Source: Candidatus Babeliales bacterium (GTDB taxonomy: Bacteria > Babelota > Babeliae > Babelales > JACPOV01). From it: a stretch of DNA of 64,000 bases. Shown here one piece after another: positions 37,104 to 62,547 of the stretch. Every line of letters begins with the position of its first letter. Position 1 is the first letter of the stretch. The stretch lies in the NCBI GenBank assembly GCA_050250855.1, contig JBFWNW010000002.1:32001-96000 (forward strand), in the 5' to 3' direction. The notes below the pieces were generated by a model. That model saw nothing but the letters and a program-made list of their open reading frames with translations, did not search any database and had not been told where the DNA came from. A program made the position numbers and the translations under genes.

Positions 37104-37116
37104 GAAAATCTTTATG

Positions 37117-42152: not shown

Positions 42153-42175
42153 AAATAGTTTTTTTGGTCTATATC

Positions 42176-42814
42176 TTAGTTTGCTTCTTGCTCTTCTGCT
42201 GCAACAGCAACCTCTTCTTTTTGAACAGCATCACTACTTGCTTCATTAGCTAAACTCGCTGCATTTTCAAGTACAACCATAAAAGGATGTTTTTCTGTCT
42301 CTTTATACTCAGCTTCAGTTTGTTTTTCTGAACTCTTCAAGCAGGATTTCATTATAGCCTCAATACGATTTATCTCATCCTTAAGCATAACCACAAAAGA
42401 ATTATTTTCTGCCTCTTTATGCTCAGCTTTATTTTGCTCTTCTAAGCTCTTGTAGTAAGCAGGGCTAAGCCATAGTTTATCAATTGCTTTCAGGGCTAAA
42501 ATCATACCTGCATAGGAAAACATATGGGGAAGTCCATACTGAGAAGCATTGTAAAAAGCATCTGCAAAAGAACAAGGATGAATAAACATGCTCCCCTTTA
42601 CCTTAAAACTACGGATTAGATAAATATATTCAGATACTGCATAAGTTCCTGCAATAATTGCTGCAGAATTCAAGTTAGTACGAACATTAAAATACCAGTC
42701 AGCTGCGCTGTGCCCTTTTGGCAAAGATTTTTCTTGCTCTCCTGAAACTGCTGTACCAACTATAGAGAAAAGCAATGCAGCTAATGCAAAGTTTTTATAA
42801 CGAGACAGAAACAT
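42176..42814 (-). CDS. Hypothetical exported/membrane protein with repeated acidic C-terminal segment
   Basis: MFLSRYKNFAL leader, DWYFNVR, DKLWL..YYKSLEEQ. Confidence 0.75.
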   Translation of the reverse strand: MFLSRYKNFALAALLFSIVGTAVSGEQEKSLPKGHSAADWYFNVRTNLNSAAIIAGTYAVSEYIYLIRSFKVKGSMFIHPCSFADAFYNASQYGLPHMFSYAGMILALKAIDKLWLSPAYYKSLEEQNKAEHKEAENNSFVVMLKDEINRIEAIMKSCLKSSEKQTEAEYKETEKHPFMVVLENAASLANEASSDAVQKEEVAVAAEEQEAN

Positions 42815-46082: not shown

Positions 46083-47591
46083 ATGAAAAAAATTTTAATA
46101 CAAGTAACCCTTTGGCAAACAAAGGTTGCTATACTCCGGGATGGAGAACTACAGAATATCTATTTTTCATCCCCGGTCAGTGAAAATCTTGAACGTTCAT
46201 ATTTTAAGGGTATTGTTAATAAGGTACTGCCTGGGATACAAACAGCCTTTGTAGACATCGGGCAACCAAAAGCAGGCTTTTTACATATATCAGAAATTGA
46301 TCGAGAGCTTGCACTCCAGCGCATGAGCTCTACCGTAGATCTTGAAGATTTTAAGGATTCAAAACCTGAGCCTTCTCCATCTCGTCATGGTATGGATATT
46401 AGCAAGATATTCAAGGAAAATGAGAATATCTTAGTACAAGTAAGCAAAGAACCTGTTTATGAAAAAGGGGCTAAACTTACTACCTGCTTTACCATTCCTG
46501 GTAGATTTCTTGTTCTTATGCCCAATATTCCCCGCATAGCTATTTCTAAAAAAATAGAAGACCGAGAAGAACGCGCACGCCTTAAAGAATTGGTTTTGGC
46601 TAATTTACCTGAGGGTATGGGCGCTATTATACGTACAACTTCAGAAAAACGTTTAGAAAAAGAAATCATTCGCGACCTGCATTACTTAGTTGATATTTGG
46701 AATACTATTCTAAAAAAATATCAAGCTGCAAAACCTACTGAAAAAATTTATGAAGATTTACCATTAGTGCTCAGCATTGTGCGTGATCATCTTGATGAAG
46801 ATGTAGAAGATGTTGTTATTGATGATCAAAGAACACAAGTTGAAGTCTATAAATTTGTAAAAACAATAGCACCAGAATATGCTCAACGCATCCATTATTA
46901 TGCAGGGCCTCAAGATTTATTTGAGCGCTTTAATGTTAATAAGCAACTAGAAGAAGCACTTTCTGAAAAAGTTCATCTAAAATCTGGCGGTTCTATTATT
47001 GTTGAAACTACACAAGCTATGACCGTTATTGATGTAAATACTGGTAAATTTATAGGTAAAACAGATTTAGAAGAAACAATACTTAAGACAAATTTAGAAG
47101 CTGCTGAAGAAGTTGTACGCCAGTTGCGCTTGCGCAACATTGGTGGGCTTATTGTTATTGACTTTATTGATATGGCAACGCATGCCCACCGCCAAAAGCT
47201 TTTAAAATTTCTAGAGCGCATGCTTAAAGAGCGTGATAAATTCCAATCTGTGGTACTGAAAGTTTCTGAGTTTGGGCTTATTCAGATGACGCGTAAGCGT
47301 TCAGGCAAAACATTGTTGCAGGAATTAATGACAACCTGTCCAACCTGTAAAAGTCTTGGTGTTATTAAATCAATCCAAACGCAATGTTATACAATTTTGG
47401 AAAAAATAAAAATCGCTTTAGAAAAAAAGAAAACTGAACCAAAAATAACCCTTGTTCTTAACCATGAAATGTTTGAATACATGACTGGCATAGAATACAA
47501 CGTTATTCTTGAGCTTGAGAAAAAATACAATGCCAAAATTACTCTCGTAAGCGATGAAACCATGCACTTACTAGAGTTTGAGATTCAGTAA
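46083..47591 (+). CDS. rng: Rne/Rng family ribonuclease (RNase G-sized)
   Basis: AFVDIG..GFLH, LVQVSKEP..KGA.LT, IDVNTG, LRNIGGLIVIDFIDM, CPTC. Confidence 0.93.
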   Translation: MKKILIQVTLWQTKVAILRDGELQNIYFSSPVSENLERSYFKGIVNKVLPGIQTAFVDIGQPKAGFLHISEIDRELALQRMSSTVDLEDFKDSKPEPSPSRHGMDISKIFKENENILVQVSKEPVYEKGAKLTTCFTIPGRFLVLMPNIPRIAISKKIEDREERARLKELVLANLPEGMGAIIRTTSEKRLEKEIIRDLHYLVDIWNTILKKYQAAKPTEKIYEDLPLVLSIVRDHLDEDVEDVVIDDQRTQVEVYKFVKTIAPEYAQRIHYYAGPQDLFERFNVNKQLEEALSEKVHLKSGGSIIVETTQAMTVIDVNTGKFIGKTDLEETILKTNLEAAEEVVRQLRLRNIGGLIVIDFIDMATHAHRQKLLKFLERMLKERDKFQSVVLKVSEFGLIQMTRKRSGKTLLQELMTTCPTCKSLGVIKSIQTQCYTILEKIKIALEKKKTEPKITLVLNHEMFEYMTGIEYNVILELEKKYNAKITLVSDETMHLLEFEIQ

Positions 47592-47597: not shown

Positions 47598-48443
47598 TTA
47601 TGGATTTCCATATTTTTTGAATATTTTTTCAACAAAAATACGGTTTGATTCTTTAGAAAGCTTTACTGCATGGTTATAATCAGCATTAAGTTTAAACGTT
47701 TTTTCTTCATTGCAACGATCAAAACCATAGCCTTCCCATAATTTTTCCCAGTTTTCTTTATACTCCAAACAACTGAGAATGGTAGGCAATGCTCCTTCAA
47801 GCCAAGCATCATTTTTTCTATAGATTTCGCACAGTTCAATAAAATCATCTTTATATACCGCTGGTATATATGCTATATCTGCATATGCATGACAGATGCA
47901 ATTATCTCCCCAGTTAGCTTTTAACATTTCCTTATAGCAATCAGGCGTTTCTTTATAAGCATTCTTTAGTGCTTCATAACCAAATTTTGTTGGCCACCAA
48001 CAATTAGTAATTGCTCTAATCCCTTTATTTAAATTAACAGCTTCTCCAATATCATATCTATGCCAATTAACGAATACATGATTAGCGGCCCATATTTTTG
48101 ATAGATCAAAACGATTATAACGCCAAACATTCATTAAGCAATCATCGTGACAGAACAAATACCCTTTATAATCAGGAAATCTTTGCATAGCATCACTAAG
48201 AGCATAATAACTAAATGCCCCTCGCTCCTCTTCAATCGCATAAACGTCAGGACACTCACTTGGTCCATAAAAAATTACTTTAGAAAAATAAGGCTCATAG
48301 ATCTTTTTTAAAAATGAGATTGCTTCATAATGAGCAAAATTAAAATTTATAATTAAAAGAACATCATCAAACATTTTTCCATAATTAGAAAAAATAATAG
48401 TAAAGACAAAAAAATAAACAATTCTTTTACTAAAAAAAACCAT
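47598..48443 (-). CDS. STELLO/DUF288-like GT-A domain protein with signal peptide
   Basis: LLIINFN, YKGYLFCHDDCLMNVW, ADIAYIP, WLEGALPT, HAVKLS. Confidence 0.65.
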   Translation of the reverse strand: MVFFSKRIVYFFVFTIIFSNYGKMFDDVLLIINFNFAHYEAISFLKKIYEPYFSKVIFYGPSECPDVYAIEEERGAFSYYALSDAMQRFPDYKGYLFCHDDCLMNVWRYNRFDLSKIWAANHVFVNWHRYDIGEAVNLNKGIRAITNCWWPTKFGYEALKNAYKETPDCYKEMLKANWGDNCICHAYADIAYIPAVYKDDFIELCEIYRKNDAWLEGALPTILSCLEYKENWEKLWEGYGFDRCNEEKTFKLNADYNHAVKLSKESNRIFVEKIFKKYGNP

Positions 48444-48455
48444 AGGTTTCCCTTT

Positions 48456-49535
48456 CTAGTGTGTTATAGTTTTATAATAGCTATAAGCCTTTTCAAGCAT
48501 AGCTATTTGCTCCGGTGTAAAAATTAACTCTCTTTTGTAATCAGGAATAGTTAATGATAACACGGTATCAATAAAATATTCTGTAGAAAATAGAAATGCC
48601 ATTTCGCTCTTCAAGTAAGCTTTAATATTTTTAATATATTGATCATATTCTTCTTTTTTCATCTTTTTCATAAATTTATATAATTCTCGATTATTTTTAA
48701 ATTTACGGCGATCAATAAAGCAACTTGGCCATACACAATCGGTAATATTTTCTGCACCCCAATAGACTGGTACACAGCCAGAAACTAAACAATCAAAAAT
48801 TTTTTCTGTAATATAGCCAGGAACATTATTACAATTTTCATAACAAATGCAAAATTTATAATTTTTTAATACTGGGCGTTTATGAGGAACCTTGCCTTTA
48901 AATGTCTTAAATTGCGATGCAGGCCAACCACCTTCACCATAAAAATCAAATTTTTTTCTCCTTTTACTTTTTTTCTCAAAAAAATTAATTACTTCTCTTC
49001 GTGCAGAATATAACTGGCCAACTCCTCCTGACATCTTATAGCTTACTATCATAGTGCACAATTTCTTTTGATCAAAAGAAGGAATATCTTTTTCTATTTC
49101 TAATGATGGTTGAGGATAAAAAAACTTTAAAGCTTTATCGTTATCAATCATTGCATCAGATAAATATAAAATTTTTTTACAATAAGGCCGATAATCAAAA
49201 CTATACATTCCTGGCGCAATCAGAGGCGGTTCAAAAACTCCAAAAATAGATTTTTCTTGCAATGTTTTCGGCAAAAGATCGACATTAGGAGTATTTAAAA
49301 AAAAAGCCCCTATACAATTATCATCATTATAATCACTAAGCTCTAAACAGCTTGGATGATAACCAAGATTTTTTATGGCTTGTGCAAAATCGTAAAACAT
49401 CTTCCATCCATTATCGCGACAAGGGTAATTAGGAATATTTAATATTTCATCAGACAAATTAAAATAAAATACTTTTTCTGTTCCAACTACAGTAAAAAAA
49501 GCTAAAAAAACTAATACTCTTATCTTATTATTCAT
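48456..49535 (-). CDS. GT10 alpha-1,3/4-fucosyltransferase-like with signal peptide
   Basis: YKFCICYEN..GYITEKIFDCLVSGCVPVYWGA (GT10 motif). Confidence 0.88.
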   Translation of the reverse strand: MNNKIRVLVFLAFFTVVGTEKVFYFNLSDEILNIPNYPCRDNGWKMFYDFAQAIKNLGYHPSCLELSDYNDDNCIGAFFLNTPNVDLLPKTLQEKSIFGVFEPPLIAPGMYSFDYRPYCKKILYLSDAMIDNDKALKFFYPQPSLEIEKDIPSFDQKKLCTMIVSYKMSGGVGQLYSARREVINFFEKKSKRRKKFDFYGEGGWPASQFKTFKGKVPHKRPVLKNYKFCICYENCNNVPGYITEKIFDCLVSGCVPVYWGAENITDCVWPSCFIDRRKFKNNRELYKFMKKMKKEEYDQYIKNIKAYLKSEMAFLFSTEYFIDTVLSLTIPDYKRELIFTPEQIAMLEKAYSYYKTITH

Positions 49536-49542
49536 ATATTTT

Positions 49543-50391
49543 CTACGCCTTCAAGTAACTATGTTGTAAATGGGGATTAAAAAAAAGAGCCGCGAGCGCA
49601 ACATTTGATACGCCATGGATAAAATGATCACACTTAGAAAGCAACTGTGTTTCAATCAAAACCTGTTCTCCCATTAATGCTCTATTTTTTACTTGTTGGT
49701 TCCATATATGTAATCCTGTATCATCAAGAGATCGATAGGAGTCATAATAGATCACCTTACCAGGTAATTTCTTTTTTAATTCATCAAGAACTCGTTGATC
49801 ATCAGTCGCTACCAAAAATTGTGCTCCCTTATGCTTAGAAGCCTCTTCTATATACTGCTTAAGAGGAATTCGCGGTGCTTCATTATGGTCTGTTCTGCGT
49901 ACATGAATACCGACCGTCTTTTTACCTTGCATATTTTTGTGATAAAAATCATCAATTTTTGCACTAATTTGAGGTTTTATATGTATATATTTTTCTATAT
50001 ATGAGTTAATAAAAGATCTATATTCATAAGAAAAATTTTGTTCATATCCAATATATCCGCAAGGTATAGCTTGACCATCTGGCGTAACATAATCTTCATG
50101 TATTACATCACCAGAATTATACTGAGCTTCTGAGACGGGATAAAAATAATATTCCCAAATATTATCACTTCCATTATAAGTTCCTGATACTTTATAATAA
50201 GCAGGAGCACGGTTCCAATGTACCACAAGATCTAGCCCTTTTTCTTCACACCATATAAGATGACTGACTACACCAAATATATTAGAAAAAAGACCTGCCC
50301 AGCGACCACCTAAAACATAATGATCTTTTGAAAAAGAGAAAAAACTAAAAAATATAATCGACATACAAAGAAAACAAGAATAATTTTTCAT
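49543..50391 (-). CDS. NodZ/GT23-like fucosyltransferase with signal peptide
   Basis: AGLFS, NIWEYYF, GIHVRRTD, LVATDD, LLSKCDHFIHGVSNV. Confidence 0.85.
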   Translation of the reverse strand: MKNYSCFLCMSIIFFSFFSFSKDHYVLGGRWAGLFSNIFGVVSHLIWCEEKGLDLVVHWNRAPAYYKVSGTYNGSDNIWEYYFYPVSEAQYNSGDVIHEDYVTPDGQAIPCGYIGYEQNFSYEYRSFINSYIEKYIHIKPQISAKIDDFYHKNMQGKKTVGIHVRRTDHNEAPRIPLKQYIEEASKHKGAQFLVATDDQRVLDELKKKLPGKVIYYDSYRSLDDTGLHIWNQQVKNRALMGEQVLIETQLLSKCDHFIHGVSNVALAALFFNPHLQHSYLKA

Positions 50392-50426
50392 TAACTATTT
50401 CCTCAACAAAAATCTGTTTTATAGCT

Positions 50427-51311
50427 CTAAGAAATAACCAAGCCTACCTTAAAATCTTCCGTCATTTTTAAATATATGCTTTTTAATAATGGATTAAAAA
50501 ACAATGCACCCAAGGAAACATTTGATACAGAGTGAATAAAACAATCGCACAAAGAAAGTAGCTTTGATTCTATAAGCACTTGCTCTCCCATAAGAGCTTT
50601 ATTATCTACTTGTGGGTTCCATATATGCAATCCTTTATTATTTGAAGAACGATACGCATCATAATAAATAACGTTTCCCTTTAGTTTTTGTTTTAAAATA
50701 TCTAACACTGATTGATCATCGGTCGCTACTAAAAACTGCACATCTTTAAAAGAATTTGCCACCTGAATATAAGCATTAAGAGGAATGCGTGGCGATTCAT
50801 AATGATCTGTTCTTCTAACGTGAATTCCTATTGTTGCTTTACCTTCCATATTTTTTTTATAAAAATCATTCATTTTTTCAAGAATAGAAGGCTTTATGTG
50901 AATATATCTTTGAATATAGGAGTTAATAAATGATCTATATTCATAAGAAAGATTTTTTTCATATAAATAATATAAACATTCAATAGCTTCTCCATCTGGT
51001 GGCGTATAATCTGCGTGCAATTCATCACCAAGTTGATAGTGAGCTTCTGAAACAGGATAAAAATAATATTCCCAAATATTATCACTGCCATTATAACCAT
51101 CACTCATCTTGTAAAAAGAAGGCTCATCTTTCCAATAAACTACTAAGTCCATTCCCTGTTTTTCACACCAAATGAGATGATTAATGACCCCAAGGATATT
51201 TGAAAATAACCCTGTCTGCCGACCTGTCAAAACATAATAATTATTACTTAAACAAGAAAATGATTGTCCTAAGAAAAAAACTCCTATAATAATTTTTACA
51301 AAAAACCGCAT
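50427..51311 (-). CDS. NodZ/GT23-like fucosyltransferase with signal peptide, tandem paralog
   Basis: TGLFS, NIWEYYF, GIHVRRTD, LVATDD, LLSLCDCFIHSVSNV. Confidence 0.85.
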   Translation of the reverse strand: MRFFVKIIIGVFFLGQSFSCLSNNYYVLTGRQTGLFSNILGVINHLIWCEKQGMDLVVYWKDEPSFYKMSDGYNGSDNIWEYYFYPVSEAHYQLGDELHADYTPPDGEAIECLYYLYEKNLSYEYRSFINSYIQRYIHIKPSILEKMNDFYKKNMEGKATIGIHVRRTDHYESPRIPLNAYIQVANSFKDVQFLVATDDQSVLDILKQKLKGNVIYYDAYRSSNNKGLHIWNPQVDNKALMGEQVLIESKLLSLCDCFIHSVSNVSLGALFFNPLLKSIYLKMTEDFKVGLVIS

Positions 51312-51314
51312 AAC

Positions 51315-52385
51315 TTATCCTATTTTTTTAAACAAAAAAGAACAATAATCCTTTGCCTTTTCAAGGTTAGTTATTTGTTCCGGGTTAAAAATAAGCTCTT
51401 TTTTATAATCAGGAACTGTTAATGACAAAACTAAATCAATAAAATATTCCATAGAAAATAAAAACGCCATTTCACTCTTTAAATATGCCTTGATATTTTC
51501 AATATATTGATCGTATTCCTCTTTTTTCATATGCTTAATGAAATTGTACAACTCTTGATTATCCTTAAATTTACGCCGATCAATAAAGCAATTTGGCCAT
51601 ACATAATCGGTAATATTTTCTGCACCCCAATAAATAGGGACACATCCTGCAACTAAACAATCAAAAATTTTTTCTGTAACATATCCTGGCGCATTGTTGC
51701 TATTTTCGTAACATATACAAAACTTGTAATTTTTGAGCACTGGTCTTTTGTGAGAAACCTTCCCTTTATAGGTTTTAAATGACGCTGGCCATTCAATACC
51801 ATATACATCAAGCTCTTGGACTCTTTGAGGATCTGAATCAAAAAAATTAACTACACTAAGACGTTGGGTAAATAATTCTCCAGGCCTTTCTATAAATTTA
51901 TAGGTTGCAATAAGTGCACATAGTTTTTTTTCATGAAAATCTGGAATATCCTCTTCAATCTCCAGTGAAGGTTGAGGATAAAAAAATTTAAATCTCGTAT
52001 TGTTATCAATCTTATTATCCAAGAGATATAAAGTTCTAAAAGGATAGAAGGTTGTTGTATAATAACCAGGAGCAATAATAGGCGGCTCCCATAATGAGAA
52101 TAAACATTTTTCAGGAATTAGATTCGGTGAAATATAATTGGGCAAATTAATAAAAAAAGCACCTGCATAATCTTTTGATCCCAGATAATCAAATTCTTTT
52201 ACCTCATAACCAAGTTTTTTTGCCGCCTGAGCTAATTCATAAAAAACTCTATAAGCAGCATCTCTTTGCGGATAAGAAGTATCAGTAAAAGTAACTTCTG
52301 GAAGATTTATATAAAAAATCCTTTGATCAGCTTCACTCAAAAAAACCTGTAATAAAAAAGTAATTCCTAATAAATAGCGCACCAT
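51315..52385 (-). CDS. GT10 alpha-1,3/4-fucosyltransferase-like with signal peptide
   Basis: YKFCICYEN..GYVTEKIFDCLVAGCVPIYWGA. Confidence 0.88.
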   Translation of the reverse strand: MVRYLLGITFLLQVFLSEADQRIFYINLPEVTFTDTSYPQRDAAYRVFYELAQAAKKLGYEVKEFDYLGSKDYAGAFFINLPNYISPNLIPEKCLFSLWEPPIIAPGYYTTTFYPFRTLYLLDNKIDNNTRFKFFYPQPSLEIEEDIPDFHEKKLCALIATYKFIERPGELFTQRLSVVNFFDSDPQRVQELDVYGIEWPASFKTYKGKVSHKRPVLKNYKFCICYENSNNAPGYVTEKIFDCLVAGCVPIYWGAENITDYVWPNCFIDRRKFKDNQELYNFIKHMKKEEYDQYIENIKAYLKSEMAFLFSMEYFIDLVLSLTVPDYKKELIFNPEQITNLEKAKDYCSFLFKKIG

Positions 52386-53857
52386 TATACTATGCCAAAA
52401 TTATACAGCTTTCTCTTTTGATATAGCTGCTGATCATACCTAAAATATTGTGCATTACGCACATATAAAGGATCGTTATGATCAGAACCATCTAAAGGGT
52501 AATTATTCTTAATAAGCTGCTCATAGAATATTTTTTCTTTACCGAGTGAACGGGCTACTTCAGCCAGTTCATTATCGCAGTAATATGATTTATATTCTGG
52601 ATAATAAATATATCCAAACCGTTTATAATACATTCTGCCTATAATAGGATAAATAACATAGTCTTTAGGATCTCTGCCATCTGAAAAATTAAGGATACCG
52701 TCAAAATCAGGAAAATGTTTCAACATTTGACGCACTATAACTACATCATAGTTTTTTACGATAGGTTCAAGATCATCACTTACTACTAAAATAACGTCAA
52801 ACTTATCAATAAAATCATCGATATCTTTATTGTATGCTTCAATTTTTGAACTACTATTGCCAAAGCGATAAGAAAGATTTGGCAAACTATCAAGAATACT
52901 TATTACCTTGGCATTATTCATAGTTGGATCATCTTGATCGCACGTAATTAAAAAATGGTAGGGAATGGTTCCTGATAACATCTCATAGTACTTTTTTAAA
53001 TATTGGAAAAATTGTACCGGACGATAACGCGTTGGAATTTTTATAAGTAGACGAACTAACTGCTCTCTTGACTGCTTGCAAGCATGAAATGCTATAGTAT
53101 CTATATCTTTTTTATATGCACTATAGGGCCTTGGAGGTAAACAATCAACATAAGTACCTTCTTCAATACGGCCCACATCATAGCGCCAATTAATTTTATC
53201 TATTCTCGTGCGTGGTGAAACTACATCAGTTTTGCCCAATCGTATACAGCGACTCTCATAACCATCCCACGCAAGTACCGTTTTATATAACATTTTTTGA
53301 TCAGTGGTCCATCCAATTGCAGTATCATGCCATTCTTTAATCTTTTGAGGGATATCCTCTTTTGTGAAAATCTTAAAAATTTCTGCAAAAATTTTACCTT
53401 TACCTGCAACATAGCACATAGGAATTTCTTTGAATTGTCGTTCAAACTCTTCGCTATCTCGATAAACAACAAAAACATCATCAGCTAAATCTTTAATACG
53501 CTCGGTAAAATAATCTCGAGAAAGAGGTAATAAGTCTATATCAGAAACTATGCAACAATCATTGGGAAATAACAAGGGCAAAAATAAGCGAATACATTGA
53601 GCATATAATGACGTTGGTATGCCTGGAATAGGCTCAAAGCGAATAATGTCACCTAATGATTCATCTATTTCTACACTTTTATCTGCAATTAAAGCTAACG
53701 TTGGCCTTATACCAACTACTTCTTTCCACATCTTGGCAACCAGCGGCCAGTATTCTATATAATTGGGATTTGCATCAGTAGACAAAATAACACGATCAAG
53801 CGTTAAAGCTTCTGCTTTAAAAATACATAAAAAAAGTACTACGTATATTCTTCTCAT
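52385..53857 (-). CDS. Two-domain putative glycosyltransferase with signal peptide
   Basis: N-domain IRLF..VSDIDLLP (DxD), PMCY, WTTDQ; C-domain LLIKIPTR.RP, VSDDL, YYCDNE; leader MRRIYVVLFLCIFKAEA. Confidence 0.7.
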   Translation of the reverse strand: MRRIYVVLFLCIFKAEALTLDRVILSTDANPNYIEYWPLVAKMWKEVVGIRPTLALIADKSVEIDESLGDIIRFEPIPGIPTSLYAQCIRLFLPLLFPNDCCIVSDIDLLPLSRDYFTERIKDLADDVFVVYRDSEEFERQFKEIPMCYVAGKGKIFAEIFKIFTKEDIPQKIKEWHDTAIGWTTDQKMLYKTVLAWDGYESRCIRLGKTDVVSPRTRIDKINWRYDVGRIEEGTYVDCLPPRPYSAYKKDIDTIAFHACKQSREQLVRLLIKIPTRYRPVQFFQYLKKYYEMLSGTIPYHFLITCDQDDPTMNNAKVISILDSLPNLSYRFGNSSSKIEAYNKDIDDFIDKFDVILVVSDDLEPIVKNYDVVIVRQMLKHFPDFDGILNFSDGRDPKDYVIYPIIGRMYYKRFGYIYYPEYKSYYCDNELAEVARSLGKEKIFYEQLIKNNYPLDGSDHNDPLYVRNAQYFRYDQQLYQKRKLYNFGIV

Positions 53858-53867
53858 AGCTATCTCT

Positions 53868-55229
53868 TTATTCAGTACATGAAATTAAACAAATATCTTC
53901 TTTGTCTTTGGATAAATCATAAGATTGTATAGTTGAAAGTGATAATACAGTATTTCTTTTTACTATCATGCCACATGAATCTGCAGGAGACATAAATTTT
54001 ACTTGTGAAATAGCTAAACCATCCCATAGATATGAAGCATTTTGCTGAGAAGAAAAATCTTTTTTGGATAGTATACAGAAATTTGATTTTGTATCATGCA
54101 TAGCTTCTGCACAAATTTCTCTATTTTTTAATGTTTCTAAAGCTTTAACGTCTGTAATAACACAATAATAATCATAATTAACATCTTTTAACCAAAAATC
54201 AGGTGATGCATCCTGCGATGGGTTAATAACAAACGTATAATGAGAGTAAAGAGAAGCTAATTGTTCATAATCATTTTTATGAGATAAGTCTCCACAGCAA
54301 ATAACGTTTAGATTTTCATTTTTATATAAACCTTTAAATGCGCTTAATGTCTCTGCAAGTGTATTTGGATCATTAGCATAGATCAAAAAAGGAATAGATT
54401 TTTTTTGATACGATTCTCGATAAGGTCTTTGTTCAAGGGGTTTGTATGCCGACCGGCTGCTAATAACCTTTCTTAAAAATTGTTGCTTTTCCCAGTTAGT
54501 TGCACCATCTGCAATTGGATTATCTTCATTGTAGCGATATAAAATGTTTGGGTTAAATTTGTAATGATTAATTGCCATCTCTATAATTGGATACACCCAA
54601 GAAACGTCCTGTGCCATAGAGAAAAACATACCTTCATGTAGTAAATCTTTAAGAGCAACTTCTCTAAAAAGCCATGCATACATGCAACGAGGAGGACTAA
54701 AATACCAATTTTGACGAATAAGATTACGCTGCTTTACCATAGGAGGAATATCACCAGACCATGGTGCATAACCGTTTCTTGTTCCCCAAAAATTACCGTA
54801 GGTAAACCAAATAGATTCATCACTAAACTGTTCATTGATTGATGATAAAACATCTTTTGTAGTAAAGGTATCATCGCCATCCAAAATTACTGCAATTTCA
54901 TGAGGTTTGCAGAATTTATAAAAGGCATACACAATATTTCTGAGCGCAAGACCACGAATTTCATTTTTAATAAGAGTAACGCGATGATGTATATCATACT
55001 GATCAATAAAAGCCTTTGCATTTGCATAAGTATTATCAGGAGAACAATCATCTATATAAACAACGCGAAATTTTTCATAATCCTGCATAAGAACTGATGC
55101 TAAATTTTCATTGCATACATCTTGATTTTTATAAGAAGGAATAATAACAACAATATCATGCTGATATGCTGCTGCTATAGTATATACTCCCCCTACAAAA
55201 ATTAATCCAAAAAATAGTTTTAAATTCAT
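53868..55229 (-). CDS. GT2 glycosyltransferase with signal peptide and decayed second domain
   Basis: VIIPSYKN, IDDCSPDNT, LDGDD; start 55229 (ATGA overlap, AAGGA SD). Confidence 0.85.
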   Translation of the reverse strand: MNLKLFFGLIFVGGVYTIAAAYQHDIVVIIPSYKNQDVCNENLASVLMQDYEKFRVVYIDDCSPDNTYANAKAFIDQYDIHHRVTLIKNEIRGLALRNIVYAFYKFCKPHEIAVILDGDDTFTTKDVLSSINEQFSDESIWFTYGNFWGTRNGYAPWSGDIPPMVKQRNLIRQNWYFSPPRCMYAWLFREVALKDLLHEGMFFSMAQDVSWVYPIIEMAINHYKFNPNILYRYNEDNPIADGATNWEKQQFLRKVISSRSAYKPLEQRPYRESYQKKSIPFLIYANDPNTLAETLSAFKGLYKNENLNVICCGDLSHKNDYEQLASLYSHYTFVINPSQDASPDFWLKDVNYDYYCVITDVKALETLKNREICAEAMHDTKSNFCILSKKDFSSQQNASYLWDGLAISQVKFMSPADSCGMIVKRNTVLSLSTIQSYDLSKDKEDICLISCTE

Positions 55230-56167
55230 ACACACTTCCTTATTTGCTTTAAGTACCATTGAAAATTTTTAATATCATTTCTTGAACTATAAATATGGGT
55301 ATTTTCATTAACAAAATCACCTTGCCAGGTAATATAAAAAGGAATTGAAACCTGATTATAATCCAAAAGCATAGGAACTTTCTGCGTATAGTCTTGTTTA
55401 TGAATGCAAAGATCTTTTAAATAGGCTAAAATTCCCAACAACGCTTGTTCATAGCGAGCACAACCAAACCCTTCAGGAGCTGTCCCATCATCAATAAAAT
55501 TTCTTAAATCTTTGCTCATGTTATATAAGGGAGTAATAAAAAGATCTTGTGCTTTTTGCGCTACACCAATAACACCAGCCATAACTGCCTCTTGTGAAAG
55601 TATCCATTGATACTCGGGAGCATCAAGATTAAATTTATTTCTTACATAACGCGTTGTCTGCCATGCAATGGGATGTCTAAATTTACCATTATCACGCTCA
55701 TTACCAATAGTAGCTAAAAAATATCCTTTGTGCTGTATATATTCAAATAAATCATCAAGAGGACGCAATACCGTTGAGCCTGCATCTATCCATAGAACAT
55801 AGGGAAATCTTTCTAAAGCCTGTTTTATAACAACAGGTTTCCATGCAAACCATCCAGGAACCATTCTTCCTGCCTTATTAATTACTACCTGCCTGAGTAA
55901 GTCAGGATGCGTTAATTCAACATTATAAACTGCTATATTTTGAATAGTTTTAAGAAAAGAAATTTGTTGTTCTTCAAGGCCTAAATCAAAAACAGCAATT
56001 TCGTTAATATTGTCATAATTTGTAGCATGTAATGATCCAATTAAATTTAAAAGCTTAGAAAAATATTTTGCATCACATGCAGTACAATAATACTGAGGAA
56101 TAGCTTGTAGAAAAGCCATTCCTCCTAATAAAGCTAACCATACATAAAGAGTCTTTCTTTTTATCAT
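55226..56167 (-). CDS. DUF1647-like putative GT-A glycosyltransferase with signal peptide
   Basis: LLNLIGSLH, VFDLGL, FAWKPVVI, VLWIDAG, RYEQA. Confidence 0.65.
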   Translation of the reverse strand: MIKRKTLYVWLALLGGMAFLQAIPQYYCTACDAKYFSKLLNLIGSLHATNYDNINEIAVFDLGLEEQQISFLKTIQNIAVYNVELTHPDLLRQVVINKAGRMVPGWFAWKPVVIKQALERFPYVLWIDAGSTVLRPLDDLFEYIQHKGYFLATIGNERDNGKFRHPIAWQTTRYVRNKFNLDAPEYQWILSQEAVMAGVIGVAQKAQDLFITPLYNMSKDLRNFIDDGTAPEGFGCARYEQALLGILAYLKDLCIHKQDYTQKVPMLLDYNQVSIPFYITWQGDFVNENTHIYSSRNDIKNFQWYLKQIRKCV

Positions 56168-56173
56168 TACTCT

Positions 56174-56764
56174 TTACTCAAAAAATGTACGAATATCTAT
56201 AGTATCACTGACAATCGTTGTCTGAATTGCATAACGCAAATAAGTATAACGATATTTGAAAGTTGCAAGAACTGGTTCATACCCATATGCAGGTTCTTCT
56301 GTATCATGTACAACAAAAATATCTGCATTATGGCGCAAACGCTCAATATCAACTCTTCGTCTATCACCAGGACGATGATCAACAAAAACCACTGACCAAT
56401 AGCGATCTGTTCCTACAGCATCCCATAATTCTGGCTTTGGATTCTTTGCCCAATCATCTTCAAAAACAGGAATATAGCTAAAATGATGCCAATCTCGTGC
56501 CAAATCTATAAATAAAGAAAGCCATCTTTTATCAGTATCTGTTGTAAGAAGAAACCGTTTTGTTACTGAACAAACAGCATGCAAAAGTGGCGTACTATAA
56601 TCCCCAGATCCAAGTTCTAAAATAGGCCCTTTAGTATTTGCCACGACCGTCATAAGAGGAGCCATGTGAGTCCCATAATTGCCATCACCAAGACGTCTAT
56701 TCGCTTCTATAAACTGGCCATTTAAACTCAATAAAATTATGAATAAAAATAATTTTTTTTGCAT
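56174..56764 (-). CDS. SAM-dependent methyltransferase-like protein with signal peptide
   Basis: ILELGSGDYST, VFVDH, VVHDT; start 56764 (AAGAGG SD), leader MQKKLFLFIILLSL. Confidence 0.7.
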   Translation of the reverse strand: MQKKLFLFIILLSLNGQFIEANRRLGDGNYGTHMAPLMTVVANTKGPILELGSGDYSTPLLHAVCSVTKRFLLTTDTDKRWLSLFIDLARDWHHFSYIPVFEDDWAKNPKPELWDAVGTDRYWSVVFVDHRPGDRRRVDIERLRHNADIFVVHDTEEPAYGYEPVLATFKYRYTYLRYAIQTTIVSDTIDIRTFFE

Positions 56765-56777
56765 ACTATTCCCTCTT

Positions 56778-57698
56778 TTAAAAAGACCAATCAATATCCC
56801 AAATATCTAAATCTTTAAAGTAACCTTTTCCATACTGTTCAAACCATGCCAATACCTGTTTTTTCCTCCATAAAATTGGTTTATCCCATACAGAAAAATC
56901 AAGAAATTCATAACCTTTAAACCAATATACTGGAGATGGTTGCGTTCTTAATCCTCGCTCATCTTTTGAAGGGAAATAACGCACATTAATTTCCTGGCAA
57001 GATTTTTCTGGTTGCCTGATACGCTCAAGACAGCGATACCACGCTTGTTTTTCTAATAAGTTTTGCCAATTAACAAACTGAAAATGCAAAAGGCCATATT
57101 CATAACCCTGTAAACGGAATCTTTTTCCTTGCACGGGAAAACTACGATTATGCAAAAAGTATGAAGGAAAATTTGAAACACCATCATCGCAAAAAATAAC
57201 AGGTTTATAATCATTGGTCCATTTTGAGTCATCAAAACGATAGCGATCTATTGTTCTCCAGAGTTGAATCCAACAAACCTCCATACTTTCTCCTGGCTGC
57301 AAAGAAAGAATAAGTTTGCGTAAAAAATTATTATCTGAACAGTTTGCAGTAAACATTTCATCCGCATCAATTAAAACAAAATGAGTACCACCAAGTGCTC
57401 TGCCAGCATCTAATAATTTCTGCTTGTTATCACTTTCTTTGCCAACTTGCCAGCCAGATTGTTCATTGCGCAAAATGACAAATTCTTTGCCAAGCTTTTT
57501 ACAACATGATTCAACCAGAATTTTAGTGCTATCTTCAGAATTATCATCAAGCGTAACAAATGCATCAACATAAAAAGACAATGCTTGTAAACATTGCTCA
57601 ATACATTGCTCTTCATTTCTTACTTGCATAAGACTTACTATTTTAGGTGAAGCAGTTAAAGATAAAAAAGTCCCTAACAATAATAATAATTTAAACAT
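56778..57698 (-). CDS. GT2-like glycosyltransferase with signal peptide
   Basis: VRNEE, LDDNSED, LIDADE, LLHF; start 57698 (AAGGAG SD). Confidence 0.85.
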   Translation of the reverse strand: MFKLLLLLGTFLSLTASPKIVSLMQVRNEEQCIEQCLQALSFYVDAFVTLDDNSEDSTKILVESCCKKLGKEFVILRNEQSGWQVGKESDNKQKLLDAGRALGGTHFVLIDADEMFTANCSDNNFLRKLILSLQPGESMEVCWIQLWRTIDRYRFDDSKWTNDYKPVIFCDDGVSNFPSYFLHNRSFPVQGKRFRLQGYEYGLLHFQFVNWQNLLEKQAWYRCLERIRQPEKSCQEINVRYFPSKDERGLRTQPSPVYWFKGYEFLDFSVWDKPILWRKKQVLAWFEQYGKGYFKDLDIWDIDWSF

Positions 57699-57711
57699 AT
57701 TCAGCACTCCT

Positions 57712-58560
57712 TTACTGAACAAATGCTTCTTTTTTTAACCAGCTTCCTGCCCAATGGTGCACCGCATATGATTCAGGTTTTTGCCATTCTGAGGCAGGGG
57801 TTCCTCGTTGTTCATAACCACATGGGTAAAAGTAACTAGCGGGAAAAGCTACGATACGAAATTCTTGCATCATAGAGGGAACATATTTTAAAAAAAGTTT
57901 AGTAAAAAACAAAGGACCCGTTCTTAGTATAATCTGAATCTCATGAGATGAATTACGCAACTCTTCAATACATTTTTGCAATAATGGATGATGAGGAATA
58001 GACGCTATTAAAGCATTGTTAAGCTGGACCATATTGGTATCCAAAGGTTGAATACCGGTGTAAAAATCATAAATACATAAAGAATTCATTGATTTTAAAC
58101 ATTCAAAATCGGTATCAATGTAAATACCCCCAAATTGCTCTAAAATTTCATAACGCCAAATATCAGACTTTTCACCATAATTCTTTGAAGCATCAAATAG
58201 ATCTTTATTACGCCACGCAAATGATGCTACATCTGCATCTGTCCATAATTTATATTCCCAGCCAGGATTATGCTTCAACCAGCTTTCTTGATAAGCGCGG
58301 TATTTTTCAGGAAAAGGACTACCAAGCCAAATTTGATGTATTATTTTAGGGATACGAACAGACGTCGGCACAATTCTTGCTGGTGAAAATAAGTTATATA
58401 AACGCTCAAAAAAGTTTTTAAGCATCATATTATTATTCTTTTCAAGAATATGTTTATATGAATCAGCTTGCATTGATGTATTAAAATCTACCCATATAAA
58501 ATTTTCCTGTGCACAAACTAAAGAACTAAAAAGAAACGTTATGCTTAATAGTTTTTTCAT
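57712..58560 (-). CDS. GT32 (Och1/Sur1-like, DxD) glycosyltransferase with signal peptide
   Basis: IPKIIHQIW, SDIWRYEIL..GGIYIDTD, TGP, HHWAGSW. Confidence 0.9.
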   Translation of the reverse strand: MKKLLSITFLFSSLVCAQENFIWVDFNTSMQADSYKHILEKNNNMMLKNFFERLYNLFSPARIVPTSVRIPKIIHQIWLGSPFPEKYRAYQESWLKHNPGWEYKLWTDADVASFAWRNKDLFDASKNYGEKSDIWRYEILEQFGGIYIDTDFECLKSMNSLCIYDFYTGIQPLDTNMVQLNNALIASIPHHPLLQKCIEELRNSSHEIQIILRTGPLFFTKLFLKYVPSMMQEFRIVAFPASYFYPCGYEQRGTPASEWQKPESYAVHHWAGSWLKKEAFVQ

Positions 58561-58562
58561 AA

Positions 58563-59594
58563 TTATACCCTTGCTTGTTTATAAGATTTTTCTGGTACAA
58601 CCTTGTGCGCTAAATACCAAAAATATGCTTCCTTTAAACCATTTTTCAATGAAGTTTTTGCTGTCCAACCAAGCTGTGAAATTTTATCAACATTTAATAC
58701 TTTTCTTGGCGTGCCATCTAAAGTATTGATATTAAAAAGGATTTCTCCTGCATACCCAACGATCTCTTTAATTAAAGAAGCTAGTTCGGCAATTGTTATA
58801 TCTTTACCGGTCCCAATATTAATATGACCCGATTCTTCATAACTATTCATTAAAAATAAGCATGCTTGCGCTAAATCATCGACGTATAAAAATTCTCGCA
58901 ACGCTTTACCCGTTCCCCATAAAGAAACTGACGGTTTATTTTCTTCTTTTGCTGCATGAATTTTTGCAATAAGTGCAGGAATAACGTGCGATGATTCAAA
59001 GTCAAAATTATCATGAGGACCATAAAGATTTGTTGGCATACAAGAAATAAATTTTGTACCATATTGCCTGTTATAGCTTTTGCATAAAAGTATGCCGGCA
59101 ATTTTTGCAAGCGCATACGGCTCATTTGTTTTTTCAAGTTCATCGGTCATTAAATACTCTTCTTGTATTGGTTGAGGACAATTACGAGGATAAATGCAAG
59201 AAGAACCTAAAAATAAGAGCTTTTTAACGCCATTGGTATACGATGCATGAATAATATTTGCTTCAATCATAAGATTGTCATAAATAAATGAGGCTGGAAA
59301 ATCATTATTTGCTTTAATGCCGCCAACTTTTGCAGCAGCCAAAAACACATATTCCGGTTTTTCTTGGTTGAAAAAATCATGTACCGCTGCTTGGTTGCGC
59401 AAATCAAGTTCTGCAAAACTACGCGTTATAAGGTTAGTATATCCTTCAGCTTGCAACGCTCGCATTAAAGCAGAGCCAACCAACCCCTGACCTGCTATAT
59501 AAATTTTTGCCTGCTTGTCCATATGTGCTTCACTAACACCAGTAAAAAGATTAAAAATCAAGCCTATACTCATTATCTTTGTTACGTAGTTCAT
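58563..59594 (-). CDS. fcl: GDP-L-fucose synthase with apparent signal peptide
   Basis: [42 protein letters not shown]; start 59594 has AGGAG SD with 6-nt spacer. Confidence 0.95.
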
Positions 59595-60783
59595 GAGATT
59601 CTCCTGATAATTTTTGAGCTGCAATGTAGATATTTGAGCCGGTTGCCTCACTTTTTAATTCCCATGCAATTTGTTCTAAATCTGCATCCATCATTAGACA
59701 AACTAAATCTTTAAAGGTTGTTTTTGGCTCCCAACCAAGAAGTTTTTTTGCTTTGCTAGGATCACCCAGTAAAATTTCAACTTCAGTCGGTCTGAAATAA
59801 CGAGGATCAACCGCTATCAACAGCTCACCAGTTTTTTTATTGTATCCTTTTTCCTCAGCACCTATACCGCGCCATTCTACCGTAATACCAACACGTTCAA
59901 ATGCTAATTCAACAAACTCTCTTACGGTATGCGTTTGTCCGGTTGCAACAACCCAATCTTCAGGCTTTTCATACTGTAAAATAAGCCACATTGCTTCTAC
60001 ATATTCTTTGGCATAGCCCCAATCTCGTTTTGCATCAAGATTACCTAAATAAATAGGATCTTTTTTACCTAAAGAAATTGCGGCTACCGCACGCGTAATT
60101 TTTCTGGTTACAAAGGTTTCGCCACGTAAAGGAGATTCATGATTAAATAAAATACCATTTGCAGCAAACATGCCGTAGGCTTCTCGATAGTTTACCGTTA
60201 TCCAATAGGCATAAAGTTTTGCAACACCATAGGGAGAACGTGGATAAAAAGGGGTCGTTTCTTTTTGAGGAATTTCTTGTACGTTGCCATACATTTCTGA
60301 AGTTGATGCTTGGTAAAATTTCGTTGTTTTATCAAATCCGGTTACACGCAATGCTTCTAATAAACGCAAGGTACCTATGCCATCAGCATTTGCTGTATAT
60401 TCTGGCACTTCAAAAGAAACTTTTACATGAGATTGTGCTGCAAGATTATAAATTTCATCAGGCTTAATTTCTTGTATCAAACGAATAAGATTGGTAGAAT
60501 CGGTCATATCACCAAAGTGTAAAAAGAAATTTCCTTTCTTTTTATTATGAGGATCACGGTATAAAGGATCTATGCGATGCGTATTAAACATTGATGAACG
60601 ACGTTTAATGCCATGAACTTCATACCCTTTACCCAGTAAAAATTCAGCCAAGTAGGCCCCATCTTGACCAGTTATACCGGTAATTAAGGCAACTTTTTTC
60701 TTCATACTCTGCTCTCCTGCAAAAAAAGTACTGAATCCTAAGCAAGCTACTGCAACAAAAATTTTTTTATAAGAGTGCTTCAT
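59551..60783 (-). CDS. gmd: GDP-mannose 4,6-dehydratase with apparent signal peptide (second possible start at 60705)
   Basis: [50 protein letters not shown]. Confidence 0.97.
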
Positions 60784-60798: not shown

Positions 60799-61827
60799 TT
60801 ATGTATAATGATGGCTATTTTTTTCCCGTAATTGATGCAAAATATGTTTTACTTTATCTGTCTGATCTCGCTTCGCTATTAAAAGAACATCATCTGTTTC
60901 TACAACACATAGATCTTCAACGCCTATAAGTGCTACGAGCTTTTTTGGCACCTGAACAATATTATTAGCTGCGTGCAATTCAATAACTTCTGTTTGCTGT
61001 TGGCTATGCTTTTTGTGCAAAGAAAGAAATATTTCTAAGTTGCCAACATCTGACCATGTAAAAGAGCAGGGCTGTACATACACGGCATTACTTTTTTCTA
61101 ATACCGCATAATCAATAGAAATATTTTCGGCATCTTTGTAATCTGCTTTATGTTCAAAAAAATCACATACCACCTTATATAGCTGTTGGGCATGACGATT
61201 GTATTCTTCTATAAAAACAGAACTTTTGGCACAAAAAATACCTATATTCCATAACATGGTATCCATGGTACTATATACATCCGCCAATTGCGCTGAAGGT
61301 TTTTCATGAAAACGAGAAACTTTTACAACATCATTTTTTTGCGCTGCCATTTCTATGTAGCCATAGTTTGTTGCGGGAAAATCAGGACGAATTCCTAACA
61401 ATGTTATGGCATCATGAGCTTGCGAAAATTCTAACGCATTATTTAAATGTTTGGCAAATTGGTCATCTTCTACAATAAAAGCATCAGCAGGTAAAAAAGC
61501 TATAATTGCTGAAGGGTCTTTTTGTTGAATATAAAGCGTAGCCAAAAGTAATGCTGGCGCTGTATTGCGGCCAATTGGTTCAGACAAAATGCCGCCTATA
61601 GAATCTCCCAAAAGACTTTTAATAGAATCAACCTGCTGCTCAGTTGTCATAATAAAAATATTATGTTTTTCAACAATTAAAGAAGCACGCATAACAGTAC
61701 GCTCAAGCAAAGAATTTTGATCATCAAGAGAGAGCAGCTGCTTTGGCTTTTTCTCTCTACTCAAAGGCCATAAACGCTCACCTTTGCCTCCAGCTAAAAT
61801 AACAATATAGCGTGATGTTATATCCAT
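60799..61827 (-). CDS. manC: Mannose-1-phosphate guanylyltransferase, no signal peptide
   Basis: ILAGGKGERLWPLSR..PKQ, EPIGRNTA, YGYI, EKP, SIDYAVLE, WSDVG. Confidence 0.95.
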   Translation of the reverse strand: MDITSRYIVILAGGKGERLWPLSREKKPKQLLSLDDQNSLLERTVMRASLIVEKHNIFIMTTEQQVDSIKSLLGDSIGGILSEPIGRNTAPALLLATLYIQQKDPSAIIAFLPADAFIVEDDQFAKHLNNALEFSQAHDAITLLGIRPDFPATNYGYIEMAAQKNDVVKVSRFHEKPSAQLADVYSTMDTMLWNIGIFCAKSSVFIEEYNRHAQQLYKVVCDFFEHKADYKDAENISIDYAVLEKSNAVYVQPCSFTWSDVGNLEIFLSLHKKHSQQQTEVIELHAANNIVQVPKKLVALIGVEDLCVVETDDVLLIAKRDQTDKVKHILHQLREKNSHHYT

Positions 61828-61833: not shown

Positions 61834-62547
61834 TTATTTTTTTCTTCGTTCAAAAAACAAACGACAAAATGTTTTAGCTGCTTCTTTCATAATTGCTACT
61901 GAAAGCTTTGAATCGCCATGAATTCTATTACGTGCATGAATCGGAATTTCTGTTATACGCAAACCATCCTCTTTAAAGCGATACAGTGATTCAATGCAGA
62001 AAGAAAATCCTTTTGAACTTACTTTTTTATAGACATGAGGCTTTAATTTTTGTACAGAATATAAACGGTAAGCACCGGTACAATCGTACGGCATACCAAG
62101 GCCTCGTTTAATTAAATTTCGCCAAAAGTAAGTAAATGGTAAACGAATTCTTCCCCAACCGCTCATGCCACCGCCATGAATATAGCGTGAACCAATAACG
62201 ACATCATGAACATCTCTTTTTTCAAAAAGAGCAGGAATATAACGCGGATCGTGCGTAAGATCTGCATCCATCGTAATTAAAAATTTATAATTATGTTTTT
62301 GCGCATATTCAAATGCCTGCACGTGAGCCGTTCCTAAACCAAGCTTTGCAGGGCGATGCATAACATGCACAGAAGGATCTTTTTTACTTAAATCATCAAG
62401 AACTTTTCCGGTGCCATCTGGAGAATTATCATCACAAAAAAGAATATCAACATCTTCTTTGTGCTTCTTTATTTCTTCATACAAAATTAAAACATTGTCA
62501 CGTTCATTATAGGTGGGAACAAAAACTAAAACTTCATTTTTTTGCAT
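61834..62547 (-). CDS. Polyprenol-phosphate mannosyltransferase (Ppm1/DPM1-like GT2)
   Basis: PTYNERDN, DDNSPDGT, GLGTAH, MDADLTHDP, GSRYI.GG, D.TG.YR. Confidence 0.88.
   Translation of the reverse strand: MQKNEVLVFVPTYNERDNVLILYEEIKKHKEDVDILFCDDNSPDGTGKVLDDLSKKDPSVHVMHRPAKLGLGTAHVQAFEYAQKHNYKFLITMDADLTHDPRYIPALFEKRDVHDVVIGSRYIHGGGMSGWGRIRLPFTYFWRNLIKRGLGMPYDCTGAYRLYSVQKLKPHVYKKVSSKGFSFCIESLYRFKEDGLRITEIPIHARNRIHGDSKLSVAIMKEAAKTFCRLFFERRKK

Follow-up and report, generated by a model that had tools for sequence, protein, structure and literature searches.

A run of thirteen leader-bearing genes in a glycan operon of a Candidatus Babeliales bacterium, a candidate extracytoplasmic fucosylation system

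Bacterial transferases that depend on nucleotide sugars are, by the textbook account, cytoplasmic, and lipid-linked donors are used outside. The DNA described here was a stretch of 64,000 nucleotides from a Candidatus Babeliales bacterium (GenBank assembly GCA_050250855.1, contig JBFWNW010000002.1, positions 32,001 to 96,000 of the forward strand), termed the window. A glycan operon in it was found to include 13 consecutive minus-strand genes (47598-60783, from gmd to a STELLO-like gene) whose products all begin with a leader that follows the grammar of Sec signal peptides. On the best reading, which was given a probability of about 0.55, these would be Sec-exported enzymes whose site of action is the periplasm or the cell surface and whose nucleotide sugars come from the host or are exported.

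One comparison is with the endoplasmic reticulum (ER) and Golgi. Here as there, a GT-C mannosyltransferase and a polyprenol-phosphate-mannose synthase come first and are followed by Golgi-typical families with an N-terminal hydrophobic segment and a catalytic domain predicted to be non-cytoplasmic. An earlier note on this DNA had called the system Golgi-like, which holds for the transferase families and the lumen-side logic but not for the transporter or the anchor and stem. Unlike the type II GT10, GT23 and GT32 enzymes of the Golgi, the proteins here have short, mostly cleavable-looking leaders with no stem, and the genome gave no match to PF04142 or PF03151. Eukaryotes make GDP-fucose in the cytosol, whereas Gmd and Fcl here carry leaders too.

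Three-component systems, which combine a GtrB-like synthase, a flippase and a GT-C transferase, avoid nucleotide sugars outside the cytoplasm altogether. The head of the operon and gene pairs at 18542-24580 of the window resemble them. The difference lies in the 13 leader-bearing enzymes, which are of nucleotide-sugar-dependent families. Three-component extracytoplasmic glycosylation in bacteria is the subject of PMC11127046.

Two described bacterial systems are closer in chemistry. In Chlamydia trachomatis, GlgA and partner enzymes are found outside the bacterium's own cytoplasm, in the inclusion lumen, and are fed host UDP-glucose (Gehre et al. 2016, PMC4829429). The likeness is that of an intracellular bacterium with a nucleotide-sugar-dependent transferase outside its own cytoplasm and a host-fed donor. 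Chlamydia differs in exporting by type 3 secretion to a vacuole and in co-opting a host transporter for the donor; here there are Sec-type leaders, a GDP-fucose pathway and many transferases. Neisseria Lst is a lipooligosaccharide alpha-2,3-sialyltransferase of the outer membrane (PMC4324315) whose donor is CMP-sialic acid from the host (PMC4668040, PMC10827150). It too is a Leloir-type transferase outside the bacterial cytoplasm that works on a host-made nucleotide sugar, but it is one enzyme adding one terminal sugar, with neither a thirteen-gene operon nor donor synthesis.

Within the same phylum, Chromulinavorax destructans has a predicted signal peptide on 44% of its coding sequences and is in the host cytoplasm by 3 h post infection (PMC6561590). 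Babela massiliensis has a predicted signal peptide on 79 of 126 ankyrin proteins, and secretion into the amoeba cytoplasm was proposed via type II, the sole secretion system found (PMC4378268). The signal-peptide-rich habit is shared with the present genome. The Dependentiae papers cover proteases, nucleases, hydrolases and ankyrin proteins and describe no leaders on nucleotide-sugar synthesis enzymes or on rows of transferases. Words that start with 'glycosyl' or 'fucos' do not occur in the text of PMC6561590, and in that of PMC4378268 'glycosyl' occurs once, for a DNA glycosylase. Compared with Chlamydia GlgA, Neisseria Lst and the secreted proteins of Dependentiae, the operon is set apart by plain Sec leaders on a whole pathway, donor synthesis included. 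In the accessible literature on signal peptides or glycosyltransferases of Dependentiae/TM6 and on periplasmic Leloir pathways no description was found, though the supplementary tables of two Dependentiae genome papers may list such proteins. The leaders on Gmd, the co-varying leaders on Fcl, the ManC leaders in two relatives and the leaders on most transferases seem to be new.

The source genome is 1.218 Mb in 11 contigs and 95% complete, and the window has a G+C content of 33%. The stretch was found in three DNA runs of one landfill-metagenome study, and no RNA run was listed with it. One minus-strand operon spans 63909 to 47598 and consists of a leaderless head followed by the 13 leader-bearing genes. 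Its 3' neighbour at 46083-47591 is on the plus strand and convergent. The gene order PMT2-ppm1-manC-gmd is also present in two related loci (L031 and L032). The operon encodes GDP-fucose synthesis, four fucosyltransferase-like enzymes and further GT-A-type transferases, in keeping with the fucosylation that the earlier note had proposed. Its genes, from the first to the last, are as follows (all minus strand; a slash marks the putative cleavage site).

62557-63909, minus: multi-pass PMT_2-type (GT-C) glycosyltransferase, the operon's first gene, outside the thirteen; PF13231 PMT_2 42.3 bits, PF02366 PMT 32 bits; 7 further hydrophobic segments.
61834-62547, minus: Ppm1-like polyprenol-phosphate sugar synthase (GT2), leaderless; PF00535 97.9 bits.
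60799-61827, minus: ManC, mannose-1-phosphate guanylyltransferase without the isomerase half, leaderless here; PF00483 134.8 bits.
59551-60783, minus: gmd, GDP-mannose 4,6-dehydratase, with an N-terminal leader of 26-29 residues and a C-terminal tail of about 39 residues past the equivalog model; TIGR01472 611.4 bits (cut-off 415), residues 30-371 only.
58563-59594, minus: fcl, GDP-L-fucose synthase, with a leader of 23-27 residues; NF047922 470.7 bits (slightly below the cut-off of 500), residues 28-331, model positions 2-305 of 308.
57712-58560, minus: GT32-type (Och1-like, DXD) glycosyltransferase with leader; PF04488 62 bits (cut-off 23); site VCA/QE.
56778-57722, minus: GT2-like (Glyco_tranf_2_4) enzyme with leader; PF13704 24.4 bits (below 27.5), PF00535 20.5 bits (below 23.3); site LTA/SP.
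56174-56794, minus: 206-aa protein without family, with leader; no Pfam, NCBIfam or PDB sequence match; site IEA/NR.
55226-56167, minus: 313-aa GT-A-like protein (DUF1647/GT8-like by model comparison) with leader; no Pfam match; site LQA/IP.
53868-55259, minus: GT2 glycosyltransferase of 463 aa with leader; PF00535 57.7 bits; 17-residue h-region, site AAA/YQ.
52385-53857, minus: 490-aa protein of two glycosyltransferase-like halves, with leader; no Pfam match; site AEA/LT.
51315-52385, minus: GT10 fucosyltransferase-like enzyme, copy b, with leader; PF00852 58.4 bits (cut-off 23.9); site SEA/DQ.
50427-51311, minus: NodZ/FUT8-like fucosyltransferase-like enzyme, copy b, with leader; PF05830 22 bits (below 28.3); 69% identical to copy a.
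49543-50391, minus: NodZ/FUT8-like fucosyltransferase-like enzyme, copy a, with leader; PF05830 29.0 bits (cut-off 28.3) and PF19745 28.3 bits (cut-off 27.6), both narrow margins; site SFS/KD.
48456-49535, minus: GT10 fucosyltransferase-like enzyme, copy a, with leader; PF00852 57.9 bits (cut-off 23.9); site VVG/TE.
47598-48443, minus: STELLO-like protein with leader, the operon's last gene; PF03385 34.1 bits (cut-off 27.8) over 39 residues only (profile positions 201-238 of 387); 11-residue h-region, weak site.

Leader calls rested on a custom heuristic applied to the 1113 open reading frames (ORFs) of at least 90 aa in the genome. The strict form required 10 or more uncharged residues in a row with a mean Kyte-Doolittle value of at least 1.9, starting within 20 residues and preceded by a net-positive n-region. 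It replaced a permissive form based on 8-residue stretches, which wrongly flagged N-termini of Rossmann and beta-strand type, among them those of ManC and the Ppm1-like protein. The strict form is still wrong for at least 2 of the 404 leader-only ORFs that it flagged, and for a 24%-identical epimerase paralogue in locus L044 and ManC in L043.

Taken as longest ORFs, 12 of the 13 operon genes were flagged. The thirteenth, fcl, was flagged from ATG 59594, its longest ORF beginning 19 codons too early. An AGGAG lies 6 nt upstream of ATG 59594, and a later ATG (before MDKQ) has no comparable motif. The leader read from ATG 59594 has a 14-residue h-region and the site SEA/HM. The earlier statement that every gene from gmd to the operon end has a basic-hydrophobic leader was thus confirmed at 13 of 13, and the five leaders quoted with it are present in the sequence as written.

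The leaders have the composition of Sec signal peptides. The n-region carries a net charge of +1 to +4 in all 13, and the h-region is uncharged and 10-17 residues long in all 13 (375 of the 404 genome-wide leaders do not exceed 17 residues). In 12 of the leaders the N-flank carries more positive charge than the 15-residue C-flank, and in the remaining one the two are equal. By the positive-inside rule such a charge bias predicts an N-in, C-out orientation. All but gmd (12 of 13) have a small-residue (-3,-1) site close to where the h-region ends; as this site occurs in 92% of leaders genome-wide and at 68% of random positions, it is a weak discriminator. Both secretins of the genome carry the same leader type, so that the leaders of the operon match those of outer-membrane proteins of the same cell.

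A chance origin of the leaders is excluded, since windows taken at internal Met residues passed in only 30 of 3197 cases (0.9%), against 404 of 857 (47%) for the N-termini of proteins without further membrane segments. Leaders were absent from manC, from the Ppm1-like gene and from every ORF in 4878-13750, and the internal control put forward in the earlier note, which included the glycan genes at 4.9-13.7 kb, therefore holds. Also leaderless were 12 ORFs at 26646-39627 that were read as housekeeping genes (10 of them by eye, without a family scan). The run of 13 is the longest in the genome; shuffling of the labels gave runs of at least 11 in 175 of 20000 trials and of at least 13 in 19 of 20000, a generous null because genes within one operon are not independent. 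The leaders are not peculiar to this operon. In the genome as a whole 404 leader-only and 76 leader-plus-transmembrane ORFs make up 43% of the 1113, close to the 44% reported for C. destructans. The operon is an extreme case of a known genome-wide habit and no unique device.

Homologues were searched at E values up to 1e-5 and gave 910 proteins for GT10 and 3034 for GT32; leaders were scored on the best 120 of each. Named homologues in these searches came from Candidatus Babeliales, Dependentiae, TM6 and some Chlamydiae. Among the best 120 of the 910 GT10 proteins, 93 had strict leaders and 10 more were hydrophobic only; for the best 120 of the 3034 GT32 proteins the numbers were 99 and 11. 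The sample of relatives comprised 61 genomes. Here GT10 had a leader at 16 of 19 places, with one place lacking it and two that could not be assessed. At related loci the leader was present in GT32 (7/7), in the 313-aa family (5/5) and in the 490-aa family (6/6). Of the NodZ-like proteins, 6 of 7 had one, with one of them doubtful. The Ppm1-like homologues had no leader at any of 11 related loci. The orthologue check that the earlier note had proposed thus came out in its favour: the predicted leader is conserved as a feature in orthologues of other genera and not as a sequence. In the 93 GT10 homologues the median h-region was 13 residues (at least 18 in only 8), and a median of 5 residues separated the leader from the first conserved strand. 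These two values fit a cleaved signal peptide better than a Golgi-type anchor with stem.

The enzymes of donor synthesis were less uniform. A hydrophobic leader preceded the Rossmann motif of gmd at 12 of 30 related loci, and the leader sequences were unrelated to one another. In L014 and L015 there is no alternative start codon between the leader ATG and the Rossmann motif, and strong AGGAG-type or purine-rich motifs stand ahead of the gmd leader starts of L006, L015, L018 and L024. Among the best 150 Gmd representatives from a library of 1.84 billion proteins none had a hydrophobic leader (79 canonical, 25 with other extensions or fusions, 46 fragments without the motif); as Gmd is conserved and its best 150 are mostly odd forms and fragments, this search serves only as a control for leaders being unusual. 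Of 7 genomes with a leader on gmd, 5 also have one on fcl, and of 8 whose gmd lacks it, none does (Fisher p = 0.007, overstated because the genomes are kin). ManC with a real leader was found at L034 (genome G059) and L039 (G033). At L034 (G059:C3, 13817-17164) the leader-bearing ManC precedes a leader-bearing gmd ORF of 742 aa, apparently fused and long enough for a Gmd-Fcl fusion. Two genomes, G049 and G055 (94% and 93% complete), have leader-bearing GT10 genes and gave no gmd with this query, a pattern that fits host-supplied GDP-fucose.

The gmd leader of the window has an n-region of +3, a 15-residue h-region, no canonical (-3,-1) site and a C-flank of +2. Two candidate starts were noted (60700-60783, minus): ATG 60783 is preceded by AAGGAA, and the internal ATG 60705 has AGGAG 8 nt upstream. 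Dual localisation of the gmd product is conceivable from this arrangement. The dual-start idea was kept as a remark only, as gmd of genomes G001 and G002 retains the internal Met without the AGGAG motif. gmd and fcl share 44 nt (59551-59594, minus), which are the 3' end of gmd and the stretch where the fcl leader begins.

From the leaders, their grammar and their retention across orthologues we infer export, cleavage, compartment, acceptor and donor source. The thirteen proteins would be Sec substrates, with signal peptidase I probably cutting most of them, and their catalytic domains would be active outside the cytoplasm, most likely in the periplasm or at the cell surface while the bacterium replicates inside a protist. 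At the outer face of the inner membrane, the leaderless head (ManC, Ppm1-like synthase and PMT_2-type GT-C) would add a first mannose taken from a lipid-linked donor, and the exported transferases of Leloir type (two GT10, two NodZ/FUT8-like, GT32, GT2-type and GT-A-like) would lengthen the chain from this primer. GDP-fucose, other nucleotide sugars, NADPH and S-adenosylmethionine (SAM) may be host metabolites that cross the outer membrane, or may arrive through some exporter, and exported Gmd and Fcl would convert GDP-mannose to GDP-fucose on site. An extracytoplasmic workplace, as the earlier note had proposed, remains the simplest reading of leaders with Sec grammar; the idea that the whole pathway lies outside fails in genomes G005, G006 and G040.

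The genome has machinery for such export, with two secretins and one signal peptidase I (PF10502, 119 bits, C4:187009-187695). Three TLC/NTT nucleotide transporters are encoded at C3:146985-184193, beside five EamA/DMT proteins in the genome, and no SAM synthetase was found in it at 95% completeness; nucleotides of the host, and probably SAM too, must therefore be crossing the periplasm already.

Several findings weigh against Sec export to the periplasm or surface. Translation of gmd from the internal ATG with its AGGAG would yield a leaderless canonical enzyme, and the leader itself has no canonical cleavage site and is bordered by basic residues on either side. Leader-bearing GT10 genes stand beside leaderless gmd and fcl in G005, G006 and G040, and leader-bearing gmd beside leaderless fcl in G001 and G002; these patterns imply a pathway split across the membrane unless donors cross it or two forms of the proteins are made. 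No TatC was found in the genome (95% complete), so Gmd, which binds NADP, and the FAD enzyme would be left to fold and take up their cofactors after Sec export. The transporter check suggested by the earlier note was negative: neither PF04142 (Nuc_sug_transp) nor PF03151 (TPT) matched in the genome, although PF04142 was also silent in 14 control genomes, which makes the PF04142 blank a weak one, and only five two-domain EamA/DMT proteins (C3 and C1), with substrate unassigned, were present. The GalU-like and GalE-like genes lack leaders, and the UDP-sugars that the exported GT2, GT32 and GT-A enzymes need as donors would thus not be made outside. Cysteine counts gave no even bias: 171 leader proteins had an even number, 173 an odd number and 60 none, and the other proteins were split 199 to 199. 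Leader proteins were also as rich in cysteine as cytoplasmic ones (4.9 against 4.1 per protein). This picture argues against an oxidising destination, and a cytoplasmic location predicts it equally. Cysteine parity was accordingly dropped as a disulfide signature of export, since it does not separate the rivals.

A rather unlikely alternative is that Sec export is followed by passage of the outer membrane, through a type II-like secretin or vesicles, and that the enzymes act in the host cytoplasm on host glycoconjugates or on the bacterial exterior. The leader evidence is the same for this as for action in the periplasm, the two secretins of the genome would provide a route, and a reducing destination agrees with the missing cysteine parity. 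The host cytoplasm is rich in GDP-mannose, NADPH, SAM and UDP-sugars, and the ManC leaders of G059 and G033 imply that GTP and mannose-1-phosphate are within reach. The Chlamydia glycogen enzymes, which work in the inclusion with host UDP-glucose, are a precedent (PMC4829429). The head of the operon points elsewhere, as a GT-C enzyme and a polyprenol-phosphate sugar synthase suggest that the acceptor is at the inner membrane or in the periplasm of the bacterium itself. As an assembly line, eleven soluble transferases dispersed through a host cell would also do poorly, and neither a secretion signal past the Sec leader nor a sign of outer-membrane passage was recognisable in the proteins. Extension in the periplasm or at the surface is favoured because the leaderless head would suit a transfer of lipid-linked mannose on the outer side of the inner membrane.

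It is improbable that the leaders are instead uncleaved N-terminal tethers holding the enzymes on the cytoplasmic face of the inner membrane, near the lipid carrier, where ordinary cytoplasmic nucleotide sugars would be used. Such tethering needs no unusual chemistry outside the cell. It would account for leader-bearing transferases alongside leaderless gmd, fcl, GalU and GalE, for the absent nucleotide-sugar transporter match and for the lack of cysteine parity, and the gmd leader, basic on both sides and with no canonical site, is of the expected form. An N-out, C-in anchor, however, needs a charge bias opposite to that seen in 12 of 13 leaders (one tie). The h-regions of 10-17 residues are short for a membrane span, as are those of all but 8 of the 93 GT10 homologues, and the (-3,-1) sites in 12 of 13 leaders and in 92% genome-wide, compared with 68% at random positions, point to cleavage. 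The secretins, which must be exported, carry the same leader type.

That the leaders are untranslated, being chance upstream frame extensions in an AT-rich genome with the real starts downstream, is close to refuted: the internal ATG of gmd with its good AGGAG motif and the internal Met just before the catalytic domain in gmd of G001 and G002 and in gmd and fcl of G013 would fit, but 11 of the 13 proteins have no Met between leader and catalytic domain, the sole good ribosome-binding motif of fcl precedes its leader, internal-Met windows rarely pass, the housekeeping genes of the window have no such extensions, and orthologues without alternative starts also have leaders.

Action in the periplasm or at the surface can be carried one step further, tentatively. 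Babeliales, and probably some environmental Chlamydiae, might possess a genuine periplasmic Leloir pathway, doubtful as this stronger proposal is. In it, PMT-type mannose priming of envelope proteins or lipids would be followed by extension with soluble, exported GT10, GT23-like, GT32 and GT-A enzymes using host nucleotide sugars, and in some lineages ManC, Gmd and Fcl would be outside too. If so, the periplasm would be an active, reducing compartment in chemical continuity with the host cytosol, and the pathway would be the equivalent, in bacteria, of the O-mannosyl pathway of ER and Golgi, arrived at by another route.

Should the enzymes work past the inner membrane at all, they would be a large exception to the rule that nucleotide-sugar-dependent transferases are cytoplasmic, as about 100 of the best 120 homologues carry leaders for GT10 and GT32 alike. 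The periplasm of parasites living in the host cytoplasm would then be a host-fed working metabolic compartment, and the 'secretomes' of Dependentiae would read differently. A route to a fucosylated surface coat would also be open to bacteria whose cultured relative, C. destructans, has no reported lipopolysaccharide genes (PMC6561590). The question is directly testable, leader-bearing Gmd and Fcl being simple, soluble and assayable enzymes.

Assignments within the operon differed in strength. ManC scored 253.9 bits against TIGR01479 (below the cut-off of 372.95) over model positions 4-352 of 467. The name GDP-L-fucose synthase for fcl is supported by its position directly after gmd, beside the near full-length NF047922 match. 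The two GT10 copies are 59-61% identical, and the stretch YEN...Y.TEK, which we take to be a family motif of GT10, is readable in both translations. The presence of gmd and fcl in the same operon suggests GDP-fucose as their probable donor. In the structure atlas the 313-aa protein gave rows for DUF1647 and Glyco_transf_8 clusters (TM 0.61-0.69, aligned from about residue 17-22 on). The 490-aa protein had feature matches to GT2-type clusters at 0.95, and its structure rows aligned 11-259 and 268-490 separately. A PDB sequence search with the 490-, 313- and 206-aa proteins gave nothing below E = 0.2. The 206-aa protein, at most a putative methyltransferase, has no family match, and its single-sequence fold (mean pLDDT 38) is an unusable model. 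The methylation in the glycan proposed earlier does not rest on a gene of the operon but on a leader-bearing TylF-type methyltransferase (17339-18382) encoded in a second cluster.

13842-18382, minus: second cluster, four glycan enzymes with hydrophobic N-termini (NodZ-like paralogue, 512-aa protein, STELLO-like protein, TylF-type SAM O-methyltransferase); PF03385 33.3 bits, PF05711 TylF 53.9 bits.

The strict heuristic flagged three of these four, and the 512-aa protein passed the permissive version only. The cluster is flanked by leaderless glycan genes. A further leader-bearing protein with a STELLO-like N-terminal stretch was seen elsewhere in the same genome (C1:329451-330518), two genes from a leaderless GalU-like gene.

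Cofactor-dependent enzymes with a leader or anchor in the window are a deoxynucleoside kinase, the TylF methyltransferase, a thioredoxin and a reductase-thioredoxin fusion; they are in line with the export proposed for the operon. The deoxynucleoside kinase (4010-4777, minus) matches PF01712 at 152.7 bits from residue 31 and has a signal-peptide-like leader; its homologues in L045 and L048 are leaderless. At 24577-26503 (plus) the leader-bearing thioredoxin lies beside the thioredoxin reductase-thioredoxin fusion, which has a 21-residue N-terminal hydrophobic anchor. If exported, this pair would be an extracytoplasmic NADPH/FAD system. For Babela, thioredoxin reductases are mentioned as expanded (PMC4378268).

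Other glycan genes of the window include a 903-aa fusion of a Wzx-like polysaccharide-transport membrane domain with a GT4 glycosyltransferase (10302-13013, plus). At 18542-24580 (plus), a methyltransferase-like ORF and two GtrB-like GT2 synthases, the latter with membrane segments at the C-terminus, are interspersed among three paralogous multi-pass proteins that match no Pfam family, a layout that resembles repeated three-component periplasmic glycosylation sets. Two adjoining small paralogues at 41658-42814 (minus), with no family match, share a common leader and N-terminal region.

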